This document shows, in pieces, positions 20,711-64,000 of a stretch of 64,000 bases of DNA. This DNA is from Oceanococcus sp. HetDA_MAG_MS8. GTDB taxonomy: Bacteria > Pseudomonadota > Gammaproteobacteria > Nevskiales > Oceanococcaceae. Both the position numbers and the translations under genes were made by a program. How positions within the stretch are numbered: position 1 is the stretch's first letter; every line of letters starts with the position of its first letter. The stretch is from positions 91,246 to 155,245 of the forward strand of contig JAHCMK010000006.1 of the NCBI GenBank assembly GCA_019192445.1. The letters are read 5' to 3'. Below the pieces are notes generated by a model, which saw only the letters and a list, made by a program, of their open reading frames with translations, was not told where the DNA came from and did not search any database.

Positions 20711-21753
20711 CTGCGAACCGTACCGACCAACGCAAAGCTCAGACGTTCGACCAGTTGGTGCGAAAACCGTACCGGACGCCATGCTTGCCCTTCGCCACGG
20801 TGAGGCTCAGACTCCCCAGCCCTCTGAGGGCTTCGGTACGTGAAAACCTTTCAGACGCGATATGTGCTCTGCTTATTCCAGAGTTTCCCTATTAACAAGG
20901 TTTTCAAGCCAGGCTAAGTATTTTTGCGCACTTTCTTCTTGGCCATTACGCCAAAGGCACGGGCGGAGTACCTTCTAATAAGTGGCCCAAATCGCTGTGG
21001 AACAGCAAGTATCCAGCACGGCTCAGCACGGGCAAAGCCCGAAAATTGATCCCCCACCCTTGAGAAGGGCATATATGGCCTGATAGAGAACACTCGCGCG
21101 GGGTGGAGCGCACATCAACTTCAGGAAGCTTAAAAAAACCGAAGATAATCGCATTGTCCCCCAATGTGAGGAGTGTCCACCAAGCCGCACGGGATTTCGT
21201 GACGTAGCACAACGCGTGTCTAGGTGGCCACAGCTCCCAGCCCAAAGGCATGCTGGCCAAGGCCTAGAGACTCATTATCGCAACCTCATATGCAATCCGA
21301 TATTGCGTCGCTGAGTTGCAGTTCGTCAGACGCTGGATCAGCACTTTAAAGGTGCTTCCTCACTGTCGAGTTCTTTGCCATCCCGCTTGCTTGAAGGTCT
21401 GGCTTAGCACACTATGCCTTTCACTTATAGCAAGTTGCCAAGGCCGAGGGGCTACTCAAATGAGCCCTTTAGGATTGTTTGCAGTCTTACGCGATGGTTC
21501 GATATGACACAGATGAGCGAGTGATCAAATGTCATAAGCGATGGCCAGCCAAAGCCTGCAAGGCATACTGCAGACGAATTCCTTACCGCGTCACTGCGGC
21601 GCAAAAGACGGCAGGATAGTTTAGGGCAGATAATCATTGCGTTCGCTGCAGCTGAACTCCGTGCATAGCAGATTGATGCAGCGCCACGTTGCTTTGAGTG
21701 CCTTAAGTCGGCAGAATTGCGGCAAACGCATGTACACATGACAGGAAGGACAC

Positions 21754-22785
21754 ATGCAACAGCTCTCCAAGTGGGCGCAGGTTTTTTTCGCCCTTGCGGT
21801 CCCAACCTTGGTTTGGGCTGAGACAACGGTGGGTGAAGTAGAGCGGCTTTCGGGCCGAGCGACTGTCGTCCGGCAGGCCAATACGGTAGATGCCATCACC
21901 GGATTGGCACTCTTTCAGGCTGACAAGCTTTCAACAGGCCCCGCGTCAACAATTTACGCCAGCTTGTTGGACGGCTCTAAGCTCGTACTAGGCGCAGACT
22001 CTGAATTAGTCCTTAGACAAGTCATCTACGATGCTGATCGCCCCCAAGATGGCCGTGTTTCCTTATTGCTACGACTCGGTGAGCTTGAGATGACTACCGG
22101 GGACGTTGCCGAATCGGGTGGACAAGTCATTCTTTCCACGCCCTTTGGAGATATTTACGCGAGCAATACCACCTTCCAAGTGTCTCTTAATGAGGGAAAC
22201 GGTGGCCCTGTGCTAACAGTATCGAATGGGGCAGGCCAGCTGGAGATTCGGCGGGATGGGGTGGTGACCACGATCCCAAGTAATTCAACGCTAAGAGTCA
22301 ATGATGGAGGACCAGTAAGGGTAGAGGCGGGTCCTGAGCCCAGAGATAACCTATTCTTTGATGCCGGCCCCGATACCTTAGATCGCATTGAGGCGGTGCC
22401 CACTCAGGCCCCAAGCCCTACAGACCCTCCCGGCCCCTCACTAACGCCCACACCCTCACCAACGGCATCGCCGTCACCGTCGGTTACGCCCACGCCTGCG
22501 CCAACTACATCACCGTCGCCTTCGCTCACGCCTACGCCTGCGCCAACGACATCACCGTCGCCTTCGCTCACGCCTACGCCTGCGCCAACGACGTCACCGT
22601 CGCCCTCACTCACCCCTACACCTGCACCAACGACATCACCGTCGCCTTCGCTCACGCCTACGCCTGCGCCAACGACATCACCGTCGCCATCGCTCACCCC
22701 TACACCTGCACCAACGACATCACCGTCGCCATCGCCATCGCCACCACCGCCGACAACAACCCCAACGCCACCAAGCCCGTTTTAA
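21754..22785 (+). CDS. secreted FecR-domain protein with C-terminal Pro/Thr/Ser tandem-repeat tail
   Basis: 343 aa. Signal peptide [24 protein letters not shown]. FecR-like segment [15 protein letters not shown]....[40 protein letters not shown]. About 7 copies of [14 protein letters not shown] follow, ending [14 protein letters not shown]. Confidence 0.75.
22438..22737 (+). repeat. about 7 tandem copies of a 42-bp (14-codon) in-frame repeat
   Basis: The unit ACGCCTACGCCTGCGCCAACGACATCACCGTCGCCTTCGCTC is repeated head-to-tail with only a few, mostly synonymous, differences. The first copy ([14 protein letters not shown]) and the last are more diverged. Confidence 0.9.
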
Positions 22786-22853
22786 AAGGGCATTAGGTCT
22801 AAAAAGTTTGTTGGTTTGAATAAATTTAAAAACACGCCCGGAGGTTTACGTCG

Positions 22854-24029
22854 GTGATGCAACACTCTCGTATCGTTCATCTAGCAGTGGCAGTGTGGTG
22901 CTGCACACCGCTTACAGCCTTCTCTGCCCCGCCCGTAGATTTGGATGTAGCGCTGTCTTCTGTAGCGGTGGTCAACGACAACTTCTACAGCCGCGACATC
23001 AACTCTCAGAACGTAACAGGCGCGATCGTAACTCCGACTATTCGCTTACTACGCGCTGGCGCTCAGTTCAATAACTCTCTCCTGCTCAGTGCCAGCGGGG
23101 GAGCTTTCAATAGCTCGAGTGAAGACAGCTTTTTAGATTACTTGGCAAGTGCCAATTCTTTGTGGAGAGGCGGCTACCAATCAGTCGAAGTCAATGCGGC
23201 ATATCAACGCGGTCACGACCCTTTTGGGGAGGTGCGCACAGAGGGAGATGATTCTGAGAACCGCCAGCTTGACCTTTGGACGGAGGCCAGGGGCCGGCTG
23301 AAATGGCGGCGAGACGGTCAAATCAGGGGAAGTGCATTTACTGAAGTCGATCTCAGTTTTTTTGAGAGAAACTACACCACAAACGAAGAGATAACGGCGT
23401 TTCTCAACCGCGAGGGTTACACCGCCGGAGCAATCATCGGTCTTAACTTAACGGCAAAAACAGGCGTCTTCACCAACCTGACCTATAGCGCTCTTGACTT
23501 CGAAAATGAAGTAGGTCAGTTTTTACGCTCGGGTGACACCACTGCCGGCCTACTCGGAGTTCGGTGGCAAGCGACCGCGCGGACTTCGGGAGATGTTCGC
23601 CTGGGGTATGCAGAACGTTCAGATGACTCTGGGTTTTCCCTAGAGGCGAGCTATTGGAGCGCAGAGATAACCATTCAACCCACGGCCACAGACTCGGTCC
23701 GTGTCGCTACGAATCGCACCTTCGATGCAAGCTACTTCTCTGGAACCGCATTTTTCGACTCCATGAACCATCAACTTTACTGGGAACGGAACTGGAACGA
23801 ACGCTTTGTAGTCACTTTAGGTGGAGAGTTCAGAGAGCGTGAATTTATCCGTAGCGGAACCAGTGATGGAGACGATTTACTCCTTGCACAGTTCCGTGCT
23901 GAGTACACGCTGGATCGCGGCTTTTCCGTTTTCGGTCGGGTGCGGTATGTGGAACGTGAAGCGACTGCAGACACCCGCGATTTCGACGCCAGTCTTGTAG
24001 AACTGGGTTTCGACGTGAGCCTTAATTAA
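22854..24029 (+). CDS. outer-membrane beta-barrel protein of the polysaccharide export module
   Basis: 391 aa. Signal peptide ...TPLTAFSA/PP. Repeated amphipathic beta-hairpin patterns (RFVVTLGGEFREREF, LLLAQFRAEYTLDRGFSVFGRVRYVERE, LVELGFDVSL). Located directly upstream of the OPX gene. Confidence 0.6.
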   Translation: MMQHSRIVHLAVAVWCCTPLTAFSAPPVDLDVALSSVAVVNDNFYSRDINSQNVTGAIVTPTIRLLRAGAQFNNSLLLSASGGAFNSSSEDSFLDYLASANSLWRGGYQSVEVNAAYQRGHDPFGEVRTEGDDSENRQLDLWTEARGRLKWRRDGQIRGSAFTEVDLSFFERNYTTNEEITAFLNREGYTAGAIIGLNLTAKTGVFTNLTYSALDFENEVGQFLRSGDTTAGLLGVRWQATARTSGDVRLGYAERSDDSGFSLEASYWSAEITIQPTATDSVRVATNRTFDASYFSGTAFFDSMNHQLYWERNWNERFVVTLGGEFREREFIRSGTSDGDDLLLAQFRAEYTLDRGFSVFGRVRYVEREATADTRDFDASLVELGFDVSLN

Positions 24030-24053: not shown

Positions 24054-24635
24054 ATGCAACTCGAGCATCCTATTGCGAGAGCACTCATGGCTTTGGCTCT
24101 TATAGCTTTGAGTGCCTGCGCAGACACACCCACTTTGCCGCAAGACACCGTACTTCGGTTGGCCACGCCATTCAGTGCTACCAATTACCTCATATCACCC
24201 ACCGATACAGTACGAATTGACGTCTATCGGGAACCCGACCTCAGCGGCGAGTACTATGTAGACCCTTCGGGAACGATCAATTTTCCTCTGCTCGGGAGGG
24301 TTGGAGTTGCTGGCGAGACAGTCTCTGCGCTTGAAAATAAACTCAGGCTTTCATTGAGCCAAGGCTACCTTGTTGATCCCGATGTTCGGGCTTCAATAAG
24401 TAAGTTCAGGCCAATCTATATCACAGGGGCAGTAGCCAAACCTGGAGCCTACCCGTTCACACCAGGGATGACGGTCCAGCAGGCGATCGTACTCGCTGGC
24501 GGAGAAACTCGGTTTGCCGCCGACCGCTACTACCTCCAACGAAACAACGACTCCACGGACAAACAGCTCCGGATTAGTAATCGTAGCGTGCTATTCCCCG
24601 GGGACGTCATCATTATTGGCGAGCGTGTTTTTTGA
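24054..24635 (+). CDS. short outer-membrane polysaccharide export (OPX, Wza-like) lipoprotein
   Basis: 193 aa. Lipobox LIALSAC. Poly_export motif YLISPTDTVRIDVYREPDLSGEYYVDPSGTINFPLLGRVGVAGETVSALE. One SLBB-like segment (IYITGAVAKPGAYPF..GMTVQQAIVLAGG). It lacks the long C-terminal part of 379-aa Wza. Confidence 0.85.
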   Translation: MQLEHPIARALMALALIALSACADTPTLPQDTVLRLATPFSATNYLISPTDTVRIDVYREPDLSGEYYVDPSGTINFPLLGRVGVAGETVSALENKLRLSLSQGYLVDPDVRASISKFRPIYITGAVAKPGAYPFTPGMTVQQAIVLAGGETRFAADRYYLQRNNDSTDKQLRISNRSVLFPGDVIIIGERVF

Positions 24636-26842
24636 TTAACTCCGGACGACCTCCACGGCCAAGCGAAGATCTTGGAGGCTTCTCGGAAGACCTCCCAGGC
24701 ACCGTCAGCTTATCTGACCTACTGGCGATGGTGCGGAGGAACCTCGTTCTGTTAGCGGGACTTCCTCTTCTTGGTGCATTTGCACTGACCTATCATGCGA
24801 TCTCTCAACCAAAGCTTTATCAGGCCTCGGCCCTATTACAGCTTGACCCTCGTCCGGCGAAAGTACTCGCGCGTGATGATGAATTGTATGATCCAGGGTA
24901 TGAGTCTATTAGTTACTACGGAACGCAGCGCAGGATATTAGAAAGCCGTAAACTGGCATCGCAACTAGCAAAACGGCTTGATTTGGCTGAGCTAGAGGAA
25001 TTTGGTGGGCCAAAATTGCAAGAGCCTCCTAAGTGGTCAACATGGCTTAGCGCACTCCCAGGTCTCCCGGACCCGCCAGAGCCAGAGCCCGTTTCCGAGG
25101 ACAAGCGCTGGGAAAGAACGGTTGCCAGGGTGCAAAATGCAATCTCGGCGCGGCTTGCCCCAACGACCACCTTATTTGAAGTCAACTTTAGCTCCCGTAG
25201 CCCTGAGCTTGCCGCACAAGCTGCGAATGCCCTGTGCGACCTCTATGTAGAAGAGCTCCTACAGGCTCGACTGGATATTTATGCCAAAGCGAATAGCTGG
25301 CTGAACAGCAAGCTAAACACGGTTCAGGGCGACCTTAGTGAGGCAGAACAAGCCTTACAAAGTTTCCGAGATGCCCGCGACATCGTCAATGTCGGAGGTA
25401 ATCGTGGACTTATGGAAAGCGAAGTCACGGATGCTACCCGGCGACTTCGAGAGGCGGAACGAGAGCGTCAGAGACTTGAGAACCTTTACCGAGAGATTCA
25501 ACGGCTTACCCAAGAGGGTGCAGACTTAGGGGGGGCAGAACCTCTGCTTGCAGACCCTGCCTTGCGGCAAGCAGGTCGAGCGTACCTGACTGCACGCGCA
25601 CAACTCGATGAGCTTGAGTCCCGCTACGGCAAACGTCACCCACAATACCTTGCTGCTGAAACACGCTACGAGTCGCTTGAAACAACGTACAAAGAGCAGC
25701 TCGCCTCGAATGCCAGGGGCGTGCTCGCTGAGTTAGAGAGCGCCCGGAATACCGAAGCCCAGCTCCGACGTCAGAAGAGGGAGGTGGAGCAAAAGCTGCG
25801 CTCGCTCGACCGGTCGGAGTTTGAGCTCAATATGCTCGAACGAGAAGTTCGGAGCAACCGCCAGCTATACGATGCCTTCTTAACCCGTTTCCAGGAAACA
25901 GAGAGCAACTCCAGCTTTTCAGAAGCGAACGCACGAATCGCAGATCCTGCTGTACCACCGCGGGGGGCCTATGAGCCAAATGTACGCAAACAGGCCTTGA
26001 CGGGCTTTGCTATTGGAGCCGCGATCGCCCTCTTACTAACACTGTTCCGTGAGACGCTTCGCTTTAAGATTGAGTCACCAGATGAGCTTGAACAACTCTC
26101 GACAGCGCCACTATTGGGTGTGGTCCCGCACTCCAGGGCTCGCCATTTGGATAAACATCTCGTGCAGCATATGCATGATGATGCGCGCTCACCTTTTGCG
26201 GACGCGGTGCGAAGTTTAAAAACAGCCATACTGATGAATAGAGAGGCCGGCGATAAATGTCTTTGTCTCGCCATCACCTCCACAGAACCCGCCGAGGGCA
26301 AATCAACGATCACCACGGCAATGGGCTGTGTATTCGCTGCTAATGCACGCGTTCTCCTCATCGACACGGATCTTCGCAGGCCGAGGTTGGCACGAATTTT
26401 CGGAACTAGCAGTTCGAAAAATCCCGGACTTGCTGACATCCTTCAAGGAAAGTCCAGCTTCGAAAGCGCTGTTCAAACTGACGAGCTGAGCGGTCTCAGC
26501 TTCTTACCCGCTGGGCAGCCCCCCCCGAACCCCGCGCTTCTGCTTGAGTCGACCGCGTTCAAATCTTTAGTGCAATACGTGCGTGAGAGGTATGACTTCG
26601 TATTCTTTGACACTCCTCCAGTCTTGGCGACGAGCGACGCACTCCACCTTGCTGACAGCGTGGACGGATATGTAGTAGTCGCAAGAGCAGAACGCACACA
26701 TAGAAAAGCTTTCGCTGGAGCACTGAAGCGCTTAGATGGGTCAGCAGCTCTCGTACGAGGCACCATCTTGAACGATGCCTCGACCAAGAGAAGTGCTTAT
26801 GGCCAAGGCTACTACTACTATGGGTCAAGTTATAGATATTAA
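24632..26842 (+). CDS. polysaccharide co-polymerase fused to BY-tyrosine kinase (Wzc/GumC-like, PCP-2a)
   Basis: 736 aa. Wzz-type N-terminal TM, a long coiled-coil periplasmic region and a second TM. The kinase has Walker A TSTEPAEGKST, A' LLIDTDLRRP and B VFFDTPPV. C-terminal Tyr cluster YGQGYYYYGSSYRY. The start overlaps the OPX stop. Confidence 0.9.
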   Translation: MINSGRPPRPSEDLGGFSEDLPGTVSLSDLLAMVRRNLVLLAGLPLLGAFALTYHAISQPKLYQASALLQLDPRPAKVLARDDELYDPGYESISYYGTQRRILESRKLASQLAKRLDLAELEEFGGPKLQEPPKWSTWLSALPGLPDPPEPEPVSEDKRWERTVARVQNAISARLAPTTTLFEVNFSSRSPELAAQAANALCDLYVEELLQARLDIYAKANSWLNSKLNTVQGDLSEAEQALQSFRDARDIVNVGGNRGLMESEVTDATRRLREAERERQRLENLYREIQRLTQEGADLGGAEPLLADPALRQAGRAYLTARAQLDELESRYGKRHPQYLAAETRYESLETTYKEQLASNARGVLAELESARNTEAQLRRQKREVEQKLRSLDRSEFELNMLEREVRSNRQLYDAFLTRFQETESNSSFSEANARIADPAVPPRGAYEPNVRKQALTGFAIGAAIALLLTLFRETLRFKIESPDELEQLSTAPLLGVVPHSRARHLDKHLVQHMHDDARSPFADAVRSLKTAILMNREAGDKCLCLAITSTEPAEGKSTITTAMGCVFAANARVLLIDTDLRRPRLARIFGTSSSKNPGLADILQGKSSFESAVQTDELSGLSFLPAGQPPPNPALLLESTAFKSLVQYVRERYDFVFFDTPPVLATSDALHLADSVDGYVVVARAERTHRKAFAGALKRLDGSAALVRGTILNDASTKRSAYGQGYYYYGSSYRY

Positions 26843-26881: not shown

Positions 26882-27460
26882 ATGCTCTTAAAAATTTATG
26901 CCCTCACTATGGTGGCCGCTGCATGCTTTTGGAGCTACAGCGAGATTTTGGAAGCGCAGGAGATGCTTGCCTGGCGCCAGCCGGCAACCGCTCCTCATCC
27001 CATGCAGCTCTCGCCGCTACTAGATGGGCGCCGAATGGCAAATGTAAGCAGGGAAGCGCTTTACACCAGACTTGATCTTGCGGTTCAGGCGCTGGAAGTC
27101 GCGCTGCAATCGGACCCACTGAATCCAGACCTGTGGAGTCTACTCTCGCAAGGATATTTTTACTCCGGCCTGCTTGATCAAGGCAGTATGGCCAGCGAGC
27201 GGGCACTGCAACTCGCTGCGGGCAATAGGATTATCGCCTTGGAACAAGGCGTAGTCGCAGCCGACTTCTTCACAACGGTGAACTCCAGCACTCGGCGGCT
27301 ATGGTCGCAGAATGTGAGCCGCTTGCAGGATGAAGTACCCAATCCATTCCTGCTGCGGCTGATTGGTACCAAAAGGCTAGGGAAGGCTTGTCAGCACTTT
27401 CCTCCGCACGCCAACTTTGCCAAGGCATGTGCAAGAGTACAACGAGAGCTTTCTAAATGA
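26882..27460 (+). CDS. hypothetical membrane-anchored helical protein
   Basis: 192 aa. One N-terminal hydrophobic segment (IYALTMVAAACFW), with the remainder helical/TPR-like (DPLNPDLWSLLSQGYFYSGLLDQ). The stop overlaps the start of the next gene (ATGA). Confidence 0.45.
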   Translation: MLLKIYALTMVAAACFWSYSEILEAQEMLAWRQPATAPHPMQLSPLLDGRRMANVSREALYTRLDLAVQALEVALQSDPLNPDLWSLLSQGYFYSGLLDQGSMASERALQLAAGNRIIALEQGVVAADFFTTVNSSTRRLWSQNVSRLQDEVPNPFLLRLIGTKRLGKACQHFPPHANFAKACARVQRELSK

Positions 27461-28917
27461 GTCGGCGTGTACAACACAGCTGGGCACTTGGAATGTTGGC
27501 ACTGATCATCCTGAGCCTGTCCCGAGGGGGAATGACAGACGCCTCGCAATGTGGCGCAATGATCTTATGCGCTCTTAGCCTCCTGATATGCCCGCGGCCA
27601 CAAAGGGGGTCAATCGACCCCTGGCTTACAATCGCCCACCTTTGCTGGGCCATATGGCTTGCTTGGCAGGTCACCACACTTGTCCCCCTTACAGACGCAT
27701 GGCTTCGCACACTGTCACCGTTCAGTTATCAAGCCTGGCTTGACCTCGGCACACGGGTTACATCGGATAATCCATGGAACAGCATCAGCGTGCGACCCAC
27801 TGAGAGCATGCGGTATTTGCTTTTGTCTGCCAGTTATTATTGCCTCTGGACATCATTCAACTGGCAGCTTAGACAAAGCCCGCAAGTTCTCAGGTGGACA
27901 CTGACGGCAATATCCGTCTTGGGTTTGTTTCATGCCGTCTACGGCACTTTGGCGCATAGCGGGGTGGTTAGCTGGAATTTATTAGAGCCAGCAGGCTACG
28001 TCCACAGCCATTCCGCCCACGGTACATTCGCGAACCGCAACCACTACGCTGCATTTCTAACTCTCTGTGCCTCAGCAACGATCGCAGCGATGCTGGGCAA
28101 CCGACGGCATGACCGCTCTAGCAGTCGGTCTCTAGTCCGCTCAGCCCTGGACTTTCTCAATCAACCCAGCTGGCTATTTCGAGTCGTGTTACTCACCATT
28201 GTCATTGGAATCGTCCTATCACGGTCCCGCATGGGGAATACGTCGTTCGCGATCGCAGCGGGCGTGTTCGGCCTCGCCTGGCTCTTACAAACCACGACCG
28301 TAAAAGAGTTTGTCCGCGTCGGCCTTATCTTCACCAGCATCATTGTCGTTGACATACTAATAATCAGTGACAAGTTCGGACTAGATGTTGTCGTACAGCG
28401 GCTGGAGTCCACGCAACTCGACTCCAGCAATCGTGCGCAAGTGCGAGAAGTCAATCGTGAACTCCTTGCCCGAGCTCCATGGACTGGCACCGGATTAGGC
28501 AGCTATTTTGTCCTCGAGCAAGCAGAACTCAAGCGCTTTGAAGACTGGTTATATATCTACGCTCATGACGACCACACCCAGCTCAGGCTTGAGGCCGGCT
28601 TGCCCGGATATGTGGTCTTAAATTTACTCGTCCTGTGCCATCTCGGCATGGCCGCACGCACATTACGCTCGCGAAGACGGGTCTACAGGGCATCGTCTGC
28701 GGCAACCTTCATGGTGGTCACTGCAGCAGCCATTCATTCCACTGTTGAGTTCAATGCATACATTCCCGCTTGGGCCGCACTGTTCGTTGTAATTCTTGCA
28801 TTGACAACTGCGCCCCCGTCACGGAGAAGATCAAGACGGCCAAATAAAACCATAGACTATAGTGAGGGGGTCCAGCGGCGCGTAATGCCTAAGCCGGCTT
28901 TTGGAACACCAGGATAA
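27457..28917 (+). CDS. Wzy_C (O-antigen ligase/polymerase) family membrane protein
   Basis: 486 aa, polytopic. Family landmarks LSRSRMGNTSFAIA, PWTGTGLGSY and YAHDDHTQLRLEAGLPG (cf. H.HN.YLQ...E.G). Confidence 0.8.
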   Translation: MSRRVQHSWALGMLALIILSLSRGGMTDASQCGAMILCALSLLICPRPQRGSIDPWLTIAHLCWAIWLAWQVTTLVPLTDAWLRTLSPFSYQAWLDLGTRVTSDNPWNSISVRPTESMRYLLLSASYYCLWTSFNWQLRQSPQVLRWTLTAISVLGLFHAVYGTLAHSGVVSWNLLEPAGYVHSHSAHGTFANRNHYAAFLTLCASATIAAMLGNRRHDRSSSRSLVRSALDFLNQPSWLFRVVLLTIVIGIVLSRSRMGNTSFAIAAGVFGLAWLLQTTTVKEFVRVGLIFTSIIVVDILIISDKFGLDVVVQRLESTQLDSSNRAQVREVNRELLARAPWTGTGLGSYFVLEQAELKRFEDWLYIYAHDDHTQLRLEAGLPGYVVLNLLVLCHLGMAARTLRSRRRVYRASSAATFMVVTAAAIHSTVEFNAYIPAWAALFVVILALTTAPPSRRRSRRPNKTIDYSEGVQRRVMPKPAFGTPG

Positions 28918-56086: not shown

Positions 56087-56284
56087 TTGTTTGGCATGAG
56101 CGCAACCACTTCATCCTGTAGTAGTCCTGCCAGACCAGAGCACCGCCTCGCTGCGCGGCACAAAAACCCAGTGAACACCAATGTATTTATTGTACGATCG
56201 TGTGATGTTCTAAATATGTGGCCATTGAATCTGAACAGCTCCCCCATATTGCGCCGAACGCCTTCTGCCTCACTGAGACTCGGG

Positions 56285-57109
56285 TTATGCAAAGGACTCA
56301 AGCAAGCGCTGGCGCCGCGCCTTAAGGCGACCCCATTTTTTCCATAAACGTTCAGATAATAGCTGCGACTGCACACCCCACGTATCAAGCCCCTCCTCAT
56401 TCAAGTCGTAGCCAGCAGACTGTAGCAGCAACATACATTGTTTGCGATCGGTGCTTGATAAATGGTGGTGCTCATAGATTACCAAGCGAGGCTTCAGGGT
56501 AGAAAAGTCGATTTGTTTTATGATCTCAAAGTCATAACCTTCGGTGTCAATGTGCAGCACATCAACAGTCTTAATGTCATGCTTCGAACATAGAGACTCA
56601 AAGGTCAAGCAGGGGACCTCACTACAGACAATTCGACTCTCAATGTCCGGTATGAATTTGGCATGCCGAAGTAAAATCTCTCGAGAAAACGACCCCAAGC
56701 CATCGTACCAAGAGGGCAGCTCTTCATCTGGGCTGGCCTGAGGTAGGTGGTAAAATGGCATAACGCCTTCTTCCTGAGAAATAGCGACGTTTTCTAGCGC
56801 GAGTCGCTCACAGGTGTTATACCTGTTAAATAATCGCTCAAAAACGTAAGGGACTGGCTCCACCATTACCCCGCTCCATGCTGATTTCTGAATAGCATCA
56901 TGGAGAGGGTCTTGCTGGAGGCCGTCGTTTGAACCAATTTGAATGAATGTTGCTTGCGGGTAGGCTCTTGCAAATGCGAGCATGAAATCAGGTCCCACCA
57001 GCCTGCGCAGCCTACGCCTCTGCCTCCATATGCGCCGTGCATGCTGGAGTATTCCTTCACCATTTGAAACTCTCGAGAAATACAACCAGAAGCGATGAAG
57101 AAAAGTCAT
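56285..57109 (-). CDS. FkbM-family methyltransferase (stand-alone paralogue of the 51587-53332 C-terminal domain)
   Basis: 274 aa. FIQIGSNDGLQQDPL, VEPVPYVFERL (identical to the fusion protein) and VLHIDTEGYDFEII. Confidence 0.8.
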   Translation of the reverse strand: MTFLHRFWLYFSRVSNGEGILQHARRIWRQRRRLRRLVGPDFMLAFARAYPQATFIQIGSNDGLQQDPLHDAIQKSAWSGVMVEPVPYVFERLFNRYNTCERLALENVAISQEEGVMPFYHLPQASPDEELPSWYDGLGSFSREILLRHAKFIPDIESRIVCSEVPCLTFESLCSKHDIKTVDVLHIDTEGYDFEIIKQIDFSTLKPRLVIYEHHHLSSTDRKQCMLLLQSAGYDLNEEGLDTWGVQSQLLSERLWKKWGRLKARRQRLLESFA

Positions 57110-57112
57110 TAC

Positions 57113-57979
57113 TTATCCCCGAAAGCCTAAAAGCTGACTCAGTTGCTGACGGAGTGGTCTTTTCTCACGAACTCTAAGGTTGTACTCGTGCCGGTGGTGA
57201 TAGCGGAAAATGTCAGGGTACTGAGATTTCAGCCCTTCGTATTCACGGCCGTCAAAGTACTCCACAAGGTATGAGCGCCGCTGCCTTACGGAGGTGTTTT
57301 CAAAGCTACAGTGCAGTAAGTCGCGATGAATCAACAGAGCATCCCCCCTCTGCATAGCAACCGGCTTACACTCAGCGACCTTGGGGTCAACTTCGTAAAA
57401 TTGATTGAGCTGATTATCAACTCGGGTTGTCCCGTTTGATTTGCGTACGATACCTGGACTTGAATATCCCGGCTGGTGGCTTCCGGGAACGACCGTGAGG
57501 CACCCATTCTGTGCATCCACGTCGTCTAAGGGCATCCATACTGTGAAAACCGGCACCCCCAGGAAAAAGTCACTATCCCTATGCCAGTAGGTAACGCCTC
57601 CCGTGCGCGCTGGTTTGTGATAAAGCTGGTCGTCTAGTAGCCGCACGTCAGGCCCGAGAACGGCCTTAGCTGTGGCAACGATTCGAGGGTCGTGAACGAC
57701 ATCTAGAAAGGCCCTGTGATATCGGAAGGCATGCTCAATATGCAATGACGCCTTGCCGTTCACGTCGGCCAGGTTACCGTCTTCCCAAGTCAAAATGTTC
57801 TTTATAACCGGATACTTCCTCGTGTCCGTCTGCCCCTTATGACGGATAGCCTCCTCACTCAAGGCCTCCCAGGCCTTTATAAGCAGTTCTACTCGTCGTT
57901 GATCAAGTACTCCCGGAACGACAAGGAAACCATTCTCAGAGAACTGCTCCACCCCTGGGAAGTTGCCGAATGTATTCAT
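57113..57979 (-). CDS. PhyH-family Fe(II)/2-oxoglutarate-dependent dioxygenase
   Basis: 288 aa. GFLVVPGVLD start. H-x-D facial triad in WHRDSDF. Distal His in LIHRDLLHCSFEN, then RRS (2OG-binding Arg). Confidence 0.75.
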   Translation of the reverse strand: MNTFGNFPGVEQFSENGFLVVPGVLDQRRVELLIKAWEALSEEAIRHKGQTDTRKYPVIKNILTWEDGNLADVNGKASLHIEHAFRYHRAFLDVVHDPRIVATAKAVLGPDVRLLDDQLYHKPARTGGVTYWHRDSDFFLGVPVFTVWMPLDDVDAQNGCLTVVPGSHQPGYSSPGIVRKSNGTTRVDNQLNQFYEVDPKVAECKPVAMQRGDALLIHRDLLHCSFENTSVRQRRSYLVEYFDGREYEGLKSQYPDIFRYHHRHEYNLRVREKRPLRQQLSQLLGFRG

Positions 57980-57982
57980 ATG

Positions 57983-58732
57983 TTAGTTCTCTGGCTTGAT
58001 CAACAATCGTCCACACTCGTCGATACGGTGCAGGTAGGAGCCGGGTTTCTCCTTGGTTAAGTATTCGTCTACTGCCAGCCGGACTCCGGGAAAGCAACCA
58101 TAATCATCCAACAACAGTACGCCTCCAGGACTTAAGCGAGGATACAAGTGAACCATTTCATGCCTCGTTGACTCGTACCAGTCAGTATCCAGTCGGCACA
58201 GTGCCAGTTGATTCGGGGCGTTCTGCGGTAGGGTCTCTTCCACCATACCTTGAACAAATCTCAACCTATCTTCTGGGTACCCCGTGCTTTTAAGGAGTTG
58301 GACAACCTCAGCGAACGGAAGATAATCGAATGCTCCACACTCCAAAGCAGCCTCGTAACCTTGTGCAGGCGATGGAGCCTGGCCAGTAAAGTCTTTCTCA
58401 CCTGGAGGCGGCATGTGGGTGAATGTGTCGCATAAGACCAGCTCTCGGTCGCGAACACCGAGACTAAGCAAAGTCTCTGCCACAACCAGCATGCTGCCCC
58501 CTCGCCACACTCCGCATTCTAGGATTGCGCCGGGGACATCTTTGGCCACCAAATAGCGAACCGAGTCAACGAGTGCAATGATGCGCTCATTGCTTGTCAG
58601 CGTGTAGGGGCGAACTCGACCGATCAACCGACGGGTAAATTCGTCACAGTCCGATGGAAGACGTTGCTTCCGAGGATAGGCTGAAATGTCATATCCCAGA
58701 CGGCGTATCCCCCTCTTGATTAACCCTCTCAT
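57983..58732 (-). CDS. TylF/MycF-family sugar O-methyltransferase
   Basis: 249 aa. ECGVWRGGS, CDTF, metal-binding RLDTDWYEST and LLLDDYG. Confidence 0.8.
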   Translation of the reverse strand: MRGLIKRGIRRLGYDISAYPRKQRLPSDCDEFTRRLIGRVRPYTLTSNERIIALVDSVRYLVAKDVPGAILECGVWRGGSMLVVAETLLSLGVRDRELVLCDTFTHMPPPGEKDFTGQAPSPAQGYEAALECGAFDYLPFAEVVQLLKSTGYPEDRLRFVQGMVEETLPQNAPNQLALCRLDTDWYESTRHEMVHLYPRLSPGGVLLLDDYGCFPGVRLAVDEYLTKEKPGSYLHRIDECGRLLIKPEN

Positions 58733-58815
58733 GCTAAGGCCCCAACCATTCGGTATGTGTGAGATCGACTCGGCTTCGCAGGCGAGTTGGCCAAATGACG
58801 CTTAAGACCCACCTC

Positions 58816-59571
58816 TCAAGCTTTAATGACCAAGCGAGCAGCATAATCGATACGGGTCAGGAGCACAGGTTCGGCATACTGAGAAAAGTACTCATCAACC
58901 GCTTGCTTGCTGCCATGCCAATGACCGTAGTCATCTAAAATCAATACTCCACCATGCGCCAGCCTCGGGTACAAACACAACAGCTCGTGCTTCGTAGATT
59001 CGTACCAGTCGGTGTCCAATCTGAGTAGGGCCAGCTGCTCCGGTGCCTGCGTAGGAAGGGTTTCTTCAACTGGCCCTCGAACGAAATGGATACGGCTTGC
59101 GGGGTAGCCGGTCTGCATGAGCAGGTCGCGAACATTGTTCTCGTTAAACCCAGACTCTTCGAAGAACTCCTTCCATGGCCTCTCACCCCTGCCAATAGAG
59201 TTTTTCCAACTGTCTAAAGCTGGCCGCTCATAGGGTGAAGTATCGTTATTTGAGGGCATCGTCATGCCCTCGAAGGTGTCGTATAGAAAGATGTCCTTAT
59301 TATCAACGCCCATCTCTTGTAGAGTCAGAATCATCGCAAGGATGGACCCTCCTCTCCACACCCCGCATTCCGCGAAGGCCCCGTCTAGGTCACGCTGAAC
59401 ACAGTAGCGCACCGCATCAAGTAGTGCAGCGATCCGCGGCAAGCTAGTCATCGTATATGGTCGTATCGCTGAAATGATGCGATGGTCTGTTTCGGTCAGA
59501 GATTGACGCAGACGTGCGTGCGGATGTTCTTGAGGACTGCGACCCAGTGCCCGTCGTAACCGCCGAATCAC
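58816..59571 (-). CDS. TylF/MycF-family sugar O-methyltransferase, tandem paralogue
   Basis: 251 aa. ECGVWRGGS, YDTFEGM, RLDTDWYEST and LILDDYG. Confidence 0.8.
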   Translation of the reverse strand: MIRRLRRALGRSPQEHPHARLRQSLTETDHRIISAIRPYTMTSLPRIAALLDAVRYCVQRDLDGAFAECGVWRGGSILAMILTLQEMGVDNKDIFLYDTFEGMTMPSNNDTSPYERPALDSWKNSIGRGERPWKEFFEESGFNENNVRDLLMQTGYPASRIHFVRGPVEETLPTQAPEQLALLRLDTDWYESTKHELLCLYPRLAHGGVLILDDYGHWHGSKQAVDEYFSQYAEPVLLTRIDYAARLVIKA

Positions 59572-60728
59572 GCAGCACCCTCAATACGGGCCAGGGTCTT
59601 GAGCCAAACCCGCATCATTTGAGCAGTTTCCCTAAGAAACTCCTGACCTCCCTGATCCCAAATGAAACCATGCATTCGTGATGCTTGAAGCTCCAGCTCA
59701 TCCGCCAACACGGCATAAGCTTCGGTGTAGGTACTGGCTTGAAGTTTTAAACCCTGAAGCCAAGGAAGCAGATCCTCCACAATCACTTTACCCGCAAGCT
59801 CGTGATACAAGTCCTGAAAAAGGTTATGCGGCGAGCGTCGATGCTCAGCAATAGGGGACCCAAAGCATATGGCATCTCCAAGATGCTTGACACACTTTTG
59901 TAGAAAATAACCGGACAGGATGTCGCCATATCGATCAATACGCATCCCCTGGATGGGGAAACCCATCCGCACATAGTAATAGGCCGGAATCGCATCTCTA
60001 ATCAATGCGGTGTTCTGGGTGTTAATGGGGCTCCATGTTGGAGTATCTAGCAAAACAGCAGTCGAGTTCGCCGAAATTACTCGCGGGCCCTGAACCAATC
60101 TCGTAGCGGCGTCAACGTCGGGATCATCGGTCCACAGTCCTGCATTAACGGCGACGCGTCTATCGGTTGAGCCTAAAGGCTCAAGCGTGGCCCGTTCTGA
60201 AGCGCCACGCGCTGCGTAAGGGAACCCGCGCGCATAAAAAGACGCACAGTTTTCTGCATGAAGGTTTTCACAGACGTTGTACCACGGCGCCTGAGATGCA
60301 AGCATAGCTGAGCCTGGCAGAGTCGTTGTCGCAGACCCCACGATGCCATGAGCATCTATGAAGGATTCCCCTTGCAGGCAATAGTTGTCATCATCGATGG
60401 ATATGAGCGCTCTTGCCCCATGCTCCCAAGCTCGTAGAAACCCAATATTGCGACGGTTATCAGAGTTCCAGGGGATAAAGTCGGCCGGCAAACCCAGTTT
60501 TTTTAAGTAGTCAGCCTGCTCATCCAGGCTCGGGCAGTCAATATGAAAACCCATTTGCTGCGCTTGGGCTGCGGCCGCATAGACTTCCTTGGGAGTTTTT
60601 TTGTCACAAATTATTCTTAACGTGACTTTGTCACACGCATCATACTTCTCAAAATTCTCCAGGTAGCCTAATAGCCACTCAGGAGAAAATATCGTCGTTA
60701 CAACGATGTCAAATTCTGTCGGCTTCAT
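59568..60728 (-). CDS. RGP/GT75-like protein (homologue of plant reversibly glycosylated polypeptide / UDP-L-arabinopyranose mutase)
   Basis: 386 aa. Collinear with plant RGP1 by eye (window motif vs RGP1 motif):
- DIVVTTI vs DIVIPTI
- RIICDKKTP vs LIIVQDGDP
- ISIDDDNYC vs FTIDDDCFV
- ARGFPYAAR vs VRGYPFSLR
- VNAGLWTDDPDVDAATRL vs VSHGLWLNIPDYDAPTQL
- RIDRYGDILSGYF..KCVKHLG vs IGRYDDMWAGWC.KVICDHLG. Confidence 0.65.
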   Translation of the reverse strand: MKPTEFDIVVTTIFSPEWLLGYLENFEKYDACDKVTLRIICDKKTPKEVYAAAAQAQQMGFHIDCPSLDEQADYLKKLGLPADFIPWNSDNRRNIGFLRAWEHGARALISIDDDNYCLQGESFIDAHGIVGSATTTLPGSAMLASQAPWYNVCENLHAENCASFYARGFPYAARGASERATLEPLGSTDRRVAVNAGLWTDDPDVDAATRLVQGPRVISANSTAVLLDTPTWSPINTQNTALIRDAIPAYYYVRMGFPIQGMRIDRYGDILSGYFLQKCVKHLGDAICFGSPIAEHRRSPHNLFQDLYHELAGKVIVEDLLPWLQGLKLQASTYTEAYAVLADELELQASRMHGFIWDQGGQEFLRETAQMMRVWLKTLARIEGAA

Positions 60729-62002
60729 ATCTCGGGTCGCTCTCCGCTATGGCTGGTCGACTGCGGCCACCAGATGGAAACATAAAGGCCGCTAAAATGA
60801 AGAAAAAGACGCAGCCAATCTGTTTGCCCATCTAAAACCTCATGTACTGCAGATCGGTTCCCCAGCAAAGCGGGATGCCCATAGTCCTCGCAAACAAGGA
60901 CACTGCCAGGACTCAGGTACTGTTGCGGTATAGCGCGCAACAGGTACTCGGTCGCACGAAAACTGTCACAATCAATAAATGCCATCGCCAACTTTTCAAT
61001 CGGCGCGCTGTCTAATGTCTGAGTAAAGTCACCTTGAATGAGGTGTACTTTCGGCATTTTCTCAAATTTCTTTTGAACCTGAGAAAAATCCACATGGTGC
61101 GTATTTCCCCAGAAGTAATCAACACCACGTTCTTGGGGAAAGCGATCAAAGGTATCGAACAGGAAGACGCGCTTATCAGACCCCAGCAACTCCAAAGTCC
61201 GCGCAATAAGCCAACCACTGTGACCCTGGTAAGAGCCGAACTCTGCGATGTCCCCAGGGATATTCCTCTCTACAACCAACTTGAGTAGTTGGTAGAGATC
61301 CAGAAAATCACGCAGGCCGCACTTCTGTTCAAACAGGCTCAATGACTCTGCATAAATCTCGTGTGGCGTCGGCTTATCCAATAACGCGGGCGAAACGAAA
61401 AAAGTTTCCCGGTATTCGTCATGCGCAGAGAAAAATGGCTGGGCAGCGTCCAAGCCGGCAACATACTCAAACGGAAGCTGAGAAAGAAATGGATGGCGCA
61501 TCACGGCCCGTGCCAACTGGGTTTGCCGCGATGCATCTTGAAACAAGCATAGGACAAGCCTGCACTTTTCCAAGTCATCATCCGTGTCCGTGGCAATGGC
61601 TGCAATATCAGTCTCGCGAACCCTAAGACCGTTTGCTCTCAGGCGAATCAAGACACCACGATGGAAACCATCCTTAGGCCCGCTACACAGCACCCAGGCA
61701 CCAGTATTAACTGCCTCTGGGGGAAGCCGTTGCAAAACCTGCTGCACCAGTGCAGTGGCTCCTTCTTCTTGTCCACGAGCGCCATGCCAGCGCACGCGCT
61801 GAGCAATCGACGAACGACCTAGATAGCCAGCAACGCGGCCACTAATTTTTCCAGAGCGCCAGCGCCATACCCAACGGCTCCACAACAGCGCTGCTGCCCT
61901 AAACACGAACGTTTTTCCCCAAGTTCCGCAGGCTCCGACCCGCCGCGTCCTCGTCTGGAAACAGACTTGAGTAATCGCCTGTGCGGACAATCTTGCCATC
62001 AT
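60725..62002 (-). CDS. methyltransferase (TylF/Methyltransf_24-like C-terminal domain) with an uncharacterised N-terminal region of about 190 aa
   Basis: The C-terminal half carries IAEFGSYQGHSGW, LFDTFDRFP, FIDCDSFRATEY and LVCEDYG. The ATG at 62002 overlaps the upstream ABC gene by 104 nt. The alternative GTG at 61906 overlaps the ABC stop codon by only 8 nt. The start is unresolved. Confidence 0.65.
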   Translation of the reverse strand: MMARLSAQAITQVCFQTRTRRVGACGTWGKTFVFRAAALLWSRWVWRWRSGKISGRVAGYLGRSSIAQRVRWHGARGQEEGATALVQQVLQRLPPEAVNTGAWVLCSGPKDGFHRGVLIRLRANGLRVRETDIAAIATDTDDDLEKCRLVLCLFQDASRQTQLARAVMRHPFLSQLPFEYVAGLDAAQPFFSAHDEYRETFFVSPALLDKPTPHEIYAESLSLFEQKCGLRDFLDLYQLLKLVVERNIPGDIAEFGSYQGHSGWLIARTLELLGSDKRVFLFDTFDRFPQERGVDYFWGNTHHVDFSQVQKKFEKMPKVHLIQGDFTQTLDSAPIEKLAMAFIDCDSFRATEYLLRAIPQQYLSPGSVLVCEDYGHPALLGNRSAVHEVLDGQTDWLRLFLHFSGLYVSIWWPQSTSHSGERPEI

Positions 62003-63707
62003 TAACGATGAAAATTTGATCGCAATCCATCACCGTCGCCATACGATGAGCGATGACAATGACCGTCTTGACGTGGGCCATTTCCATAATCGCTTGATGC
62101 ACCGCTCTTTCGGTGTCCTGATCTAGCGCGCTGGTTGCCTCATCCAGCACGAGCACGTCCGGGTCATGGTAGAGAGCACGGGCTATACCTAAACGCTGCC
62201 TCTGCCCCCCCGACAGGCGAACACCCCGCTCCCCCACAATAGTCGCATAACCATTCTCCATATGAGCACAAATGTGCTCGTGGATTTTTGCAGTTTTGGC
62301 GGCTCTATAGACCGCTTCAATGTTCACCTCCGACGGTGGTACGCCGAAAGCGATGTTAGCGATGACTGTGTCATCAAGCAGGTAAATATCTTGGGGAACG
62401 TAGCCCATATTCGCTTGCCAGGCGTGCCGGTTCTCTTCGGTTATCACCTGGTTATCGACGATCAGCCCCCCTTTCTGCGGTGTCAGTAACCCAAGGATGA
62501 CATCGACAAGCGTTGTCTTTCCCGCACCTGTCGGGCCAACAAAGGCGACAAAACTACGCTTTGCAATATCTACACTGACATCGCTTAGCGCCTTTTTCTC
62601 AGATCCGGGGTAGCTGTAACTCACATGGTCTAGACGCAGACCATGTTCCATGGGCATTCGAGGAGGGTTGGGAGCTCTCCCTCCCTCAGGCCATGTCTGC
62701 GTGAGCTCCAGCGAAATAGACTTCAGCACGGGCGCAGTGTATTTCAGCGTTGTCAAACCCCGATAGATCGACTGGAAAGCGGGCAACATACGGTAGCCGG
62801 CGAATGCAAACGCACTGGCCAATGGCAGGAGCGCAGACAAGTTACGGTCAGCAGCAACAAAGTAGAGCACAACACTTAATAGTGCGCCAAAAGCCAGGGT
62901 CTCAATAAAATAGCGCGGGATCATCCCCAGCAAATGATTCGAGATCACCGAGCGGGAAAACTCTAATGCATGAGGCTGAAATGCGTGCACGAATGCGTCC
63001 TCACGCCCTAGTACCTTGACTTCCTTCAGCCCTCCAAAAGCCTCGTTAACAGCCTTAAGCCGAGCCTTGTTGGCGTCCAGCCTGCGCTGACCCAGACGCT
63101 CCATCCGCCGGCGAAGAACAACATACATCCCACCATAAATGACTGCGAACACGGTGGCTACAAGCAAAACCGTTACCGGGGAAAGCCAACTCAAGAAAAG
63201 CAACATGAAGATGACCATCACGCCCGAGCACGACAACCCTAAAATGATGGCAATCACACCGTGCGTTACCTGTAAGGACTCATTGACAACTGTGGTTGCC
63301 AAATCCGCTGAGTTACTAGCGATGAAGTCAACATAGGGCCGGTGGATGTAATTATGCAGTAGCGTACCCGACAACCTTCTATGAAAGTCATAACAAAACT
63401 TCGTTATCCACCATTGACTCAACATAGCCAGGCTATTGGCCATGATCAGCATCACAAGGATCAGACCCCCAAAAATTAGAGTGAAAGTCTTATGCGAATC
63501 AATACCGGCCAGGTTTGCAAACGATGCAAGCCACCTATTCTCCCAAATCATTTCCGGGCGGGTCAGCATGGAGATGAAGGGAACCACTGAACCAATGCTC
63601 GCGACTTGCACAACGCCGAGTACAGCGGCAAACGGCAAGATCAAAGCAAACTGTTTACGCTCACTATGGGTAAGTAGCAAGCGCAAGTCGCGCACCATAG
63701 ACTTCAT
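61899..63707 (-). CDS. fused TMD-NBD ABC exporter (MsbA/PglK/NdvA-like half transporter)
   Basis: 602 aa. N-terminal 6-TM domain. Walker A GPTGAGKTT, signature LSGGQRQRLGIARAL, Walker B VLVLDEATSALD and H-loop IVIAHR. Confidence 0.9.
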   Translation of the reverse strand: MKSMVRDLRLLLTHSERKQFALILPFAAVLGVVQVASIGSVVPFISMLTRPEMIWENRWLASFANLAGIDSHKTFTLIFGGLILVMLIMANSLAMLSQWWITKFCYDFHRRLSGTLLHNYIHRPYVDFIASNSADLATTVVNESLQVTHGVIAIILGLSCSGVMVIFMLLFLSWLSPVTVLLVATVFAVIYGGMYVVLRRRMERLGQRRLDANKARLKAVNEAFGGLKEVKVLGREDAFVHAFQPHALEFSRSVISNHLLGMIPRYFIETLAFGALLSVVLYFVAADRNLSALLPLASAFAFAGYRMLPAFQSIYRGLTTLKYTAPVLKSISLELTQTWPEGGRAPNPPRMPMEHGLRLDHVSYSYPGSEKKALSDVSVDIAKRSFVAFVGPTGAGKTTLVDVILGLLTPQKGGLIVDNQVITEENRHAWQANMGYVPQDIYLLDDTVIANIAFGVPPSEVNIEAVYRAAKTAKIHEHICAHMENGYATIVGERGVRLSGGQRQRLGIARALYHDPDVLVLDEATSALDQDTERAVHQAIMEMAHVKTVIVIAHRMATVMDCDQIFIVNDGKIVRTGDYSSLFPDEDAAGRSLRNLGKNVRV

Positions 63708-63713
63708 GTCGTA

Positions 63714-64000
63714 TTACGCTTGAGGGCTCTTCTCAAGCACACCTCGAAAATACGCAACGGTATGCCGTAAACCCTGCTCTAGGGCGACATCGGGCATCCA
63801 ATGCAGATTATCTTTTGCGTAAGTGATATCCGGCTGCCGCTGCTTGGGATCATCTTGGGGAAGCGGCTCAAAGCTGAACCCTCCACTCATGCCGGTGAGC
63901 TGCTGCACCTTTTCCGCCAGCTCCAACATGGTGAATTCAGCCGGGTTGCCCAAGTTGACCGGCCCAGTGAGATCATCGGCGGACTCCATGAGCCGAATTA
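63714..64000 (-). CDS. UDP-glucuronate decarboxylase (UDP-xylose synthase), C-terminal part only; the gene continues beyond the window
   Basis: [20 protein letters not shown]...[18 protein letters not shown]...[12 protein letters not shown] is alignable by eye with the human UXS1 C-terminus ([17 protein letters not shown]...DDPQKRKPDI). The reading frame is open to position 64000. Confidence 0.8.

Follow-up and report, generated by a model that had tools for sequence, protein, structure and literature searches.

Capsule and O-antigen clusters of the Salmonella rfb type in Enterobacteria occupy one conserved chromosomal site across relatives, with variants being swapped between related lineages (PMC3715488). 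Their nucleotide-sugar genes lie at one end and are better conserved, their middle is variable and mosaic, and their G+C content stays under the genome average, with the glycosyltransferase (GT), processing and tailoring genes being lowest (PMC3715488). We have analyzed a locus that shares these traits in a 64,000-nucleotide stretch of DNA from Oceanococcus sp. HetDA_MAG_MS8 (the window; G000:C17:91,246-155,245), where a large block of glycan genes follows a tRNA-Ala/tRNA-Glu pair and extends past the right end of the window. The block is predicted to be the single-copy Wzc-type exopolysaccharide (EPS) or capsule assembly locus of an Oceanococcaceae-type gammaproteobacterium. It differs from the rfb type in that the cluster as a whole appears to have left its conserved site, in that it has its own polysaccharide co-polymerase (PCP) and outer-membrane polysaccharide export (OPX) module and no Wzx, and in the uncommon size of its tailoring set (nine methyltransferase domains, two to four sulfotransferases). 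The locus is of an ordinary, known kind, but its inferred relocation is unusually tidy.

The group 1 capsule and colanic acid system of Escherichia coli comprises WcaJ, Wza-Wzb-Wzc, Wzx, Wzy, Gmd and Fcl. Our cluster likewise has a WcaJ-type transferase, a Wzc bacterial tyrosine kinase (BY-kinase) co-polymerase, a Poly_export OPX protein, gmd and fcl, and a Wzy-domain protein. In contrast to the E. coli system, its OPX protein is only 193 aa long and has a distinct BBP2_2 beta-barrel as its partner. The block encodes a PglK-like ABC exporter, neither Wzx nor Wzb was found in it, and its proteins score under the cut-offs of the WcaJ and Wzc equivalog models. Among the sulfated EPS loci of marine bacteria and cyanobacteria, the synechan (xss) cluster of Synechocystis has sulfotransferase genes inside a Wzy/PCP/OPX-type EPS cluster. 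By this description it resembles our locus, where four sulfotransferase-like genes lie in a cluster of the same type and the genome encodes an adenosine 5'-phosphosulfate (APS) kinase, but just two of these four exceed the Pfam cut-offs and a sulfated product is a prediction. Islands of the P4-integrase type, which two relatives (G003 and G008) carry at this very tRNA-Glu gene, resemble our block in their position directly 3' of the tRNA, their atypical composition and sharp borders, and their absence from that place in relatives. Unlike them, the block contains neither an integrase nor a direct repeat of the tRNA end; the genes it carries are orthologous to those of a chromosomal locus found throughout the family, and G000 appears to retain an empty ancestral site.

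The cluster and its site in the family

We compared the focal genome (G000; 3.53 Mb, 21 contigs, 58.5% G+C, 100%-complete) to metagenome-assembled genomes of Oceanococcus and other Oceanococcaceae, which represent two genera: the congeners G002 and G003, and G007, G013, G008, G011, G005 and G014 from the sister genus. A collinear cluster is present in all eight of these, and also on L113, the Logan contig bearing the closest Wzc found anywhere (69% identity). The order of genes is FecR-like, porin, Wza, Wzc, small protein, Wzy_C, initiating transferase, GT2s, GT8s, FkbM, TylF and fcl/gmd/epimerase. The two ends of the cluster (export module and fcl/gmd/epimerase) are 44-89% identical among the relatives and the middle is variable, with twelve middle genes, including all sulfotransferases, having no counterpart in the relatives. 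We thus regard the locus as one that the family inherited from its ancestor, its ends being conserved and its middle variable and mosaic.

The gene directly upstream of the cluster is an orthologue of a PvdQ-like acylase (64-78% identical) in 8/8 relatives with a sufficient contig. At the far end, the cluster of G002 closes with fcl (78-89%), gmd (81%) and the epimerase (62%). The next gene is a class-I fumarase, which shares 93% identity with the one at C2:208,270-209,823 in the focal genome. The usual site of the cluster hence lies between the PvdQ-like acylase and, in the focal genus, the fumarase. In G000, the acylase (C2:205,692-208,199, + strand) and the fumarase (- strand) are convergent and, as assembled, lie ~70 bp apart with one bidirectional terminator between them. 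This gap appears to be a clean empty site, and its edges match the first (FecR-like) and the last (epimerase) gene of our block. The focal cluster is instead located between tRNA-Glu and a resistance-nodulation-division (RND) efflux operon, not at the chromosomal position it has in relatives. As the acylase site is common to all eight relatives in two genera, and as the focal genome nests inside its own genus on the KefC tree, parsimony suggests that the acylase site is ancestral and that the tRNA-Glu position arose in the focal lineage. Synteny and composition give identical borders, the FecR-like gene to the left and the epimerase to the right, which argues that the cluster moved whole, as one unit.

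We infer with moderate confidence that the family EPS cluster was relocated as one block within the lineage's own genome, to the tRNA-Glu site. The whole cluster would have left the acylase/fumarase site and landed directly 3' of tRNA-Glu, the old site closing to a single terminator. The landing site is likely to be recombination-prone, because integrative elements repeatedly target tRNA-Glu in relatives, and the block itself has no mobility machinery of its own.

Wzc is a single-copy gene in G000 (one match at E<=1e-20). The Wzc proteins of the whole family form one clade with 100/100 support, in which the focal copy is sister to that of the congener G003; the right-end genes are nearest to the congener G002 (gmd 81%, fcl 78-89%). 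No Wzc more than 69% identical to the focal protein was found in 5.8 billion proteins, 185k species genomes or metagenome contigs: the best identities are <=54% among species genomes, <=32% among metagenome contigs and 69% in the protein collection, the last from a relative's acylase-adjacent cluster. Given that the cluster is collinear in 8/8 relatives and that its Wzc belongs to one family clade, the block would represent the family's own single-copy Wzc-type EPS locus and not a foreign or sporadic island.

In relatives, a polysaccharide tract like that next to the empty site on C2, the acylase and the cluster studied here are contiguous, forming a 'supercluster' of more than 100 kb.

Composition of the block

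The first-pass annotation of the window had noted by eye a drop in G+C content and codon style past about 20.7 kb, a still more AT-rich part at 47.3-51.4 kb and a switch in gene content right after tRNA-Glu, and had placed the right border beyond the window. Calculation bears out all four. Computed over 2-kb windows, G+C lies at 0.57-0.62 in the first 20 kb and at 0.48-0.55 in the rest of the window from 21 kb on, with a step from about 0.60 to 0.53 just past tRNA-Glu. G+C content at third codon positions (GC3) is 0.50-0.60 in all 37 long open reading frames (ORFs) between 21,742 and 66,852 (mean 0.550, sd 0.027), compared with a genome mean of 0.650 (sd 0.052) and 0.669 in flanking genes (Mann-Whitney p = 2e-21). 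The tetranucleotide deviation of 10-kb windows places the block at the 96th-99.6th genome percentile and its flanks at the 17th-62nd. The lowest values are indeed found at 47.3-51.4 kb (G+C 0.48-0.50, GC3 0.50-0.51). Low G+C also covers the non-coding spacers of the block, which has sharp borders. Along the whole contig, low GC extends over about C17:112,000 to 158,000, so that the right border lies ~3 kb past the window. The block itself runs from 21,754 to window-equivalent 66,843 (~45 kb of coding sequence, ~47 kb with both spacers), and 41 genes for glycan export, transfer and tailoring follow each other in an unbroken series from 21,754. The compositional island is genuine and far beyond chance.

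That polysaccharide clusters have a G+C content below that of the genome has long been known (PMC3715488). In G007, the orthologous cluster occupies the ancestral site and has the same offset (GC3 0.639 in the cluster, 0.748 in the flanks), and smaller GC3 offsets are found in the G013 and G003 clusters. Because the offset of G007 is seen at the ancestral site, low G+C is not evidence of recent import; low GC and GC3 are a long-standing trait of such loci and not the mark of a recent foreign origin. G000 itself contains a second low-GC tract, the cluster's ancestral neighbour (75 kb, C2:131,000-205,600, GC3 0.578), with genes for rml-type dTDP-sugar synthesis, a 2,072-aa multi-glycosyltransferase, two large OPX proteins (920 and 612 aa), a UDP-glucose dehydrogenase (Ugd), Wzx, a GT4 and an AsnB-like amidotransferase. 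After normalization for GC, the tetranucleotide signature of the island correlates best with this tract (r = 0.935; <=0.930 with any core chunk and 0.90 with the genome).

The tRNA-Glu locus

The recipient site has the following features in the window:

20502..20577 (+): tRNA-Ala(GGC) (ARAGORN; Rfam RF00005, 63.4 bits)
20597..20672 (+): tRNA-Glu(TTC) (ARAGORN, Rfam), whose 3' flank is the recipient site of the block
20682..20702 (+): terminator hairpin of the tRNA operon, with a comparable hairpin at the equivalent place in G002

The low-GC DNA starts directly past this terminator, and the tRNA-Glu sequence is 100% identical in G002, G003 and G011. Ten family genomes retain the tRNA-Ala/tRNA-Glu pair and its 5' flank (DsbD to M48, joined in the focal genus by CysH and KefC), and in none of the relatives examined does a glycan block follow tRNA-Glu. 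What is found there differs:

G007, G012, G013 and G014: truD directly 3' of tRNA-Glu
G008 (L144:2,836-10,952, G008:C35): an 8-kb integrase element after tRNA-Glu, then truD
G003 (L026:11,866-20,000 and L027, G003:C6): an island of ~17 kb directly after tRNA-Glu with a P4-type integrase, HsdM and HsdS (type I restriction-modification) and a Schlafen/AlbA_2 + HATPase_c_4 protein
G002: three fragments of the tRNA-Glu 3' end within 1 kb downstream
G005 and G011: still other genes after tRNA-Glu

The G008 element extends from tRNA-Glu to a 46-nt copy of the 3' end of this gene. It encodes a tyrosine integrase, a Zn-ribbon/DUF7146/Toprim primase-like protein, DUF3987 and an SNase-family nuclease, and in this gene content resembles a satellite or P4-like element. 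In G002 (L023:10,380-10,720, G002:C5), a repeat of ~225 bp occurs twice just 3' of tRNA-Glu, each copy holding the 16-mer ATCCCCGTGGGGACGC from the tRNA 3' end; these repeats are probably stacked att scars. As the content of the 3' flank differs among relatives and integrase elements occupy it in G003 and G008, the tRNA-Glu 3' flank is a true hot spot of integration and rearrangement, which agrees with the general expectation voiced in the first-pass annotation for tRNA 3' flanks. That annotation had also seen no integrase, no transposase and no repeat of the tRNA 3' end, and our searches reach the same result. The block is absent from the tRNA-Glu site in every relative examined.

Six-frame scans of contig C17, with stops allowed, returned no integrase (PF00589), rve (PF00665) or DDE transposase (PF01609) domain, and together with border-restricted searches revealed no remnant of an integrase, a primase or another element on C17 or in the spacers. 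The proteins of the G003 and G008 elements gave no tblastn match at the block borders. A repeat of the tRNA-Glu 3' end was searched for genome-wide, from 16 nt with <=1 mismatch through 45 nt with <=12 mismatches, and none was found; nor is there an exact match of >=11 nt near the distal border (60 kb downstream searched). A missing att repeat is weak evidence, because the G003 island, which has an intact integrase, also lacks one of >=11 nt within 48 kb, while the G008 element has its 46-nt repeat. An Rfam scan of the window found nothing besides the two tRNAs. On contig C2, an rve-type insertion sequence (IS) is located at C2:199,484-200,314, 5.5 kb from the empty site, and nothing ties this IS to the move.

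Alternative histories of the block

Several observations weigh against our reading of the block as a native EPS locus relocated in one step. A comparison of the two borders with the empty site gave no match longer than 10 nt, a length expected by chance, contig C17 contains no IS element, and ~0.9 kb of the left spacer has no accounted origin. A single inversion does not provide the mechanism: it cannot yield the junction of tRNA-Glu and the FecR-like gene in the orientation seen, and the genes found 3' of tRNA-Glu in congeners do not map beside the empty site. The nearest relatives are only 55-69% identical in Wzc, so that the move is not datable. The Wzc tree conflicts with the KefC tree, placing G002 outside and grouping G008 and G011 with G000 and G003, and cluster variants thus do pass between lineages within the family, as is common for surface-glycan loci. 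There is no GC3 dip in the G002 cluster and none is visible in L113, the closest relative; the dip is hence not universal in the family, which leaves room for a lower-GC donor. With regard to function, every assignment in the cluster rests on domain matches, two of the four sulfotransferase-like genes fall short of the Pfam cut-offs that the other two pass, the initiating transferase reaches 381 bits with the WcaJ model TIGR03023, under its cut-off of 410.75, and the best NCBIfam match of the ABC exporter, PglK, is 308.6 bits, under a cut-off of 1000.

The tree conflict and the composition would also fit a replacement, in which the acylase/fumarase site lost its native cluster by deletion and the tRNA-Glu hot spot received a variant of the same family type from an unsampled relative of lower GC within the family. 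A uniformly low GC3 (sd 0.027) with sharp borders and low GC reaching into non-coding spacers, the lack of a GC dip in L113 and G002, and a Wzc tree that disagrees with the housekeeping tree, which implies that cluster types have been exchanged, all point in this direction. In addition, the focal Wzc is unusually near L113 for its flank (69/55/44% identity to L113/G003/G002, compared with 73/72/78% for the acylase). Yet replacement needs two events, a precise deletion and an insertion, where relocation needs one, and no donor is found in any collection, none of which holds a Wzc above 69% identity. The right-end genes are nearest to the congener G002 (gmd 81%, fcl 78-89%), as vertical descent predicts, the GC-normalized signature is still genome-like (r = 0.90) and nearest to the resident C2 polysaccharide tract, and a similar GC3 offset exists in G007 without relocation. 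We therefore consider replacement a possible but rather unlikely history. A further scenario retains the transfer of the 47-kb cluster as one unit but makes it the cargo, or the in trans substrate, of a tRNA-Glu-specific integrative element of the G003/G008 type that has since been lost or has decayed. This would account for one precise unit having moved and left a clean empty site, and for its arrival exactly at the 3' end of the tRNA-Glu operon, where two different integrase elements are found in relatives and att scars in G002. It could also explain the ~0.9 kb of left spacer and the 0.75 kb of right spacer without a traced origin, and the missing repeat counts little against it, as the G003 integrase island has no detectable att repeat either. 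However, C17 and the spacers contain no integrase, primase or element remnant, the tRNA-Glu 3' end is not repeated over >=11 nt near the distal border, and the old site has no att-like sequence; excision of DNA without att sites is not known for site-specific integrases. Capture by an integrase is thus improbable to us. In this reading the integrases of the site would still be active in G003 and G008. If it were true, a large housekeeping-type glycan locus would briefly have behaved as a mobilizable island, and its position beside sulfate-uptake and assimilation genes might have been selected, coupling sulfate supply to a sulfated polysaccharide.

A classical foreign genomic island, acquired by horizontal transfer from outside the family into the tRNA site, would have the atypical composition, the tRNA-adjacent position and the absence from this locus in relatives that we observe, and single tailoring genes do have their nearest homologues in distant phyla. 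Orthologous collinear clusters throughout the family, a single family Wzc clade with 100/100 support, the empty ancestral site in the focal genome and the absence of mobility genes make such an origin very improbable. Even less credence can be given to an assembly artefact, in which the cluster would be attached to a contig where it does not belong and the empty site would result from a collapsed join. G000 is a draft in 21 contigs, but all three junctions lie deep in long contigs in unique sequence without repeats, the empty site is a well-formed terminator of convergent genes, and two complementary errors at exact gene boundaries would be required. The first-pass annotation had left the choice between an island that is old and fixed and one mobilized by something not seen. 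Our data support old but not fixed in place, since the relocation of the cluster would fall in the focal lineage, and its sense of a foreign or sporadic island does not stand in view of a collinear cluster at the acylase in 8/8 relatives and an empty site in G000.

Relocation of a native cluster carries a caution for the prediction of genomic islands, as low GC with sharp borders, tRNA adjacency, absence in relatives and a proven hot spot would sway most predictors to a horizontal call. The comparison with relatives instead points to a native, family-wide polysaccharide locus that changed its address. It offers a case of whole-cluster relocation that is precise to the gene boundary and leaves an intact empty site, and suggests that loci for surface glycans can be rearranged even where no mobility genes are seen. 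Our analysis delimits the only Wzc-dependent EPS locus of an Oceanococcaceae bacterium, with a predicted rich tailoring by methylation, sulfation, acylation and 6-deoxyhexose, and this tailoring set may interest researchers working on marine sulfated polysaccharides.

Export and assembly genes

The junction and the genes assigned to export and assembly are as follows (predicted functions; supporting matches in brackets):

20703..21753 (no strand): left junction spacer, ~1.05 kb, non-coding, G+C 0.52, with the proposed relocation breakpoint
21754..22785 (+): secreted FecR-domain protein, first gene of the cluster (Pfam FecR)
22854..24029 (+): outer-membrane beta-barrel, BBP2_2, EpsL-like (PF10082, 52.7 bits; TIGR03014 EpsL, 25.4 vs cut-off 275)
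24054..24635 (+): short OPX protein, Wza-like, 193 aa (Poly_export + SLBB)
24632..26842 (+): Wzc-type PCP-2a / BY-kinase (Wzz, GNVR, AAA_31; TIGR01007, 143.4 bits vs cut-off 108)
26882..27460 (+): conserved 192-aa protein with a faint TPR signal (35% in G003 and 37% in L113 at the equivalent position)
27457..28917 (+): Wzy_C-domain membrane protein, candidate polymerase (Wzy_C, 41.9 bits vs cut-off 31.7; the family includes ligases too)
28889..30358 (-): initiating polyprenyl-phosphate hexose-1-phosphate transferase, WcaJ-like (Bac_transf, 215 bits; TIGR03025, 373.6 vs cut-off 295.6)
61899..63707 (-): ABC exporter with fused transmembrane and nucleotide-binding domains, PglK/MsbA/HepA-like (ABC_membrane + ABC_tran)

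ORFs of the spacers have no Pfam match even at E<=1. The left spacer contains no Rfam family and resembles neither the relatives' sequences nor the empty site nor the proteins of the integrase elements. The spacer between acylase and FecR-like gene is only ~118 bp long in L113, the closest relative. Weak orthologues of the FecR-like protein are found between acylase and porin in G003 (28%) and L113 (32%). The C-terminus of the focal protein is encoded by >=6 tandem 42-nt repeats (22,393-22,770), each specifying a 14-residue Pro/Thr/Ser-rich unit; the array is the sole real repeat in the block and could vary in length among strains. The BBP2_2 beta-barrel has 32-42% identity to its counterpart in every relative's cluster, and the Wzy_C protein 35-46% in relatives. 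The OPX protein is 69-70% identical to those of G003 and L113; it scores far under full-length equivalog cut-offs and is paired with the BBP2_2 beta-barrel. The EpsL-like porin had suggested a PEP-CTERM/exosortase EPS system. This was dropped, as no exosortase (EpsH/XrtA/B; PF09721) matches in the 100%-complete G000 and the Eps equivalog scores all fall far short of their cut-offs (EpsL 25/275, EpsE 86/263, EpsF 105/423, EpsG 126/314).

Domain content suggests how the polysaccharide may be made. The WcaJ-like transferase would prime the polyprenyl-phosphate carrier, on which about 12 glycosyltransferases would assemble a repeat unit. This unit is predicted to contain a GDP-mannose-derived 6-deoxyhexose, made by gmd, fcl and the third reductase/epimerase, and to be heavily tailored by nine methyltransferase domains, two to four sulfotransferases, two O-acyltransferases and one dioxygenase. 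The PglK-like ABC exporter probably flips the unit over the inner membrane: no Wzx (Polysacc_synt) is found in the block, and the exporter is thus our candidate for a lipid-linked-oligosaccharide flippase. The only clear Wzx of the genome is at C2:172,659-173,492. Polymerization would probably fall to the Wzy_C-domain protein, and export may proceed via Wzc, the short OPX protein and the separate beta-barrel. A 429-aa protein (39,061-40,350, - strand) has ~9 predicted transmembrane (TM) segments, no Pfam or NCBIfam family and a counterpart of only 26% identity in G003; its role may be that of a second polymerase or of a divergent flippase.

Glycosyltransferase, tailoring and nucleotide-sugar genes

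The remainder of the block, including the part beyond the window, is composed of:

31050..41110 (-, one gene +): variable tailoring and glycosyltransferase block (Pfam, TM count), with class-I methyltransferases (31050, 35328), sulfotransferase-like genes (32267, 37216 on the + strand, 38162), a GT4 (33171), a GT2 (36022), an unassigned 285-aa protein (34474), the 9-TM protein (39061) and an FkbM methyltransferase (40343)
41107..46828 (-): one GT4 and five tandem GT2 genes (Pfam; old paralogues, 31-47% identical in all-against-all blastp)
47378..51405 (+ and -): most AT-rich sub-block, with a methyltransferase (+), two Acyl_transf_3 O-acyltransferases (+ and -) and a 650-bp gap (Pfam)
51587..57109 (-): GT8-FkbM fusion, two GT8, a Sulfotransfer_4 protein (54312) and an FkbM methyltransferase (Pfam; paralogues 35-44% identical)
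57113..62002 (-): PhyH-type dioxygenase, three TylF-type O-methyltransferases and an RGP/GT75-like protein (Pfam; G002 counterparts 48-61%)
63714..64000 (-): 3' part of an fcl-like gene (GDP-fucose synthase type), with its start codon at window-equivalent 64,673
64,704-65,822 (window-equivalent, past the window): gmd
65,836-66,843 (window-equivalent, past the window): third epimerase/reductase, last gene of the cluster
Right spacer: 0.75 kb with a small lipoprotein ORF, followed by the RND efflux operon of normal GC from 67,593

The glycosyltransferases comprise 6 GT2, 2 GT4 and 3 GT8 (one of them FkbM-fused) as well as the RGP/GT75-like protein, about 12 in all, and the nine methyltransferase domains are 3 class-I, 3 FkbM and 3 TylF; two Acyl_transf_3 acyltransferases and one PhyH dioxygenase complete the tailoring set. 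Recent tandem duplication of the GT2, GT8 and TylF genes is ruled out, as the paralogues are only 27-47% identical. Most genes of the 31050..41110 block have no counterpart in the relatives' clusters, and those of the 47378..51405 block have counterparts of only 29-40% identity. The nearest homologues of the sulfotransferase at 37216 are <=56% identical and spread over Cyanobacteria, Bacteroidota, Ignavibacteriota and Archaea. The tailoring genes are thus a mosaic. The only strong APS kinase gene of the genome, a source of 3'-phosphoadenosine 5'-phosphosulfate (PAPS), lies beside a tyrosine integrase on an 8.8-kb contig (C8:4,741-6,644).

Neighbouring genes

The left flank of the block encodes a sulfate ABC transporter, a SulP permease, a metallo-beta-lactamase-fold enzyme, DsbD, a GT9 heptosyltransferase, a PAPS-reductase-family protein, an M48 peptidase and a KefC-like antiporter. 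The sulfotransferase-rich cluster (32,267-55,214) is now found 4-15 kb from the genes for sulfate ABC uptake, SulP and the PAPS-reductase-family protein (6,731-17,430). This adjacency is new, the congeners sharing the left flank without the cluster. On contig C2, the focal genome has a TolC-like outer-membrane efflux protein and giant proteins (1,643 and 2,569 aa) at C2:209,873-233,000, between the fumarase and the C2:233-237 kb genes; these are absent from that interval in G002, and the stretch looks like a type I secretion or adhesin locus. About 10 kb to the right of the island, past a DUF2333 gene, lies a pair of DabB/DabA-type inorganic-carbon transporter genes (L001:15,701-19,743; C17:168,700-172,742). 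The DUF2333 gene was not found in the four congeners and is present in six sister-genus genomes.

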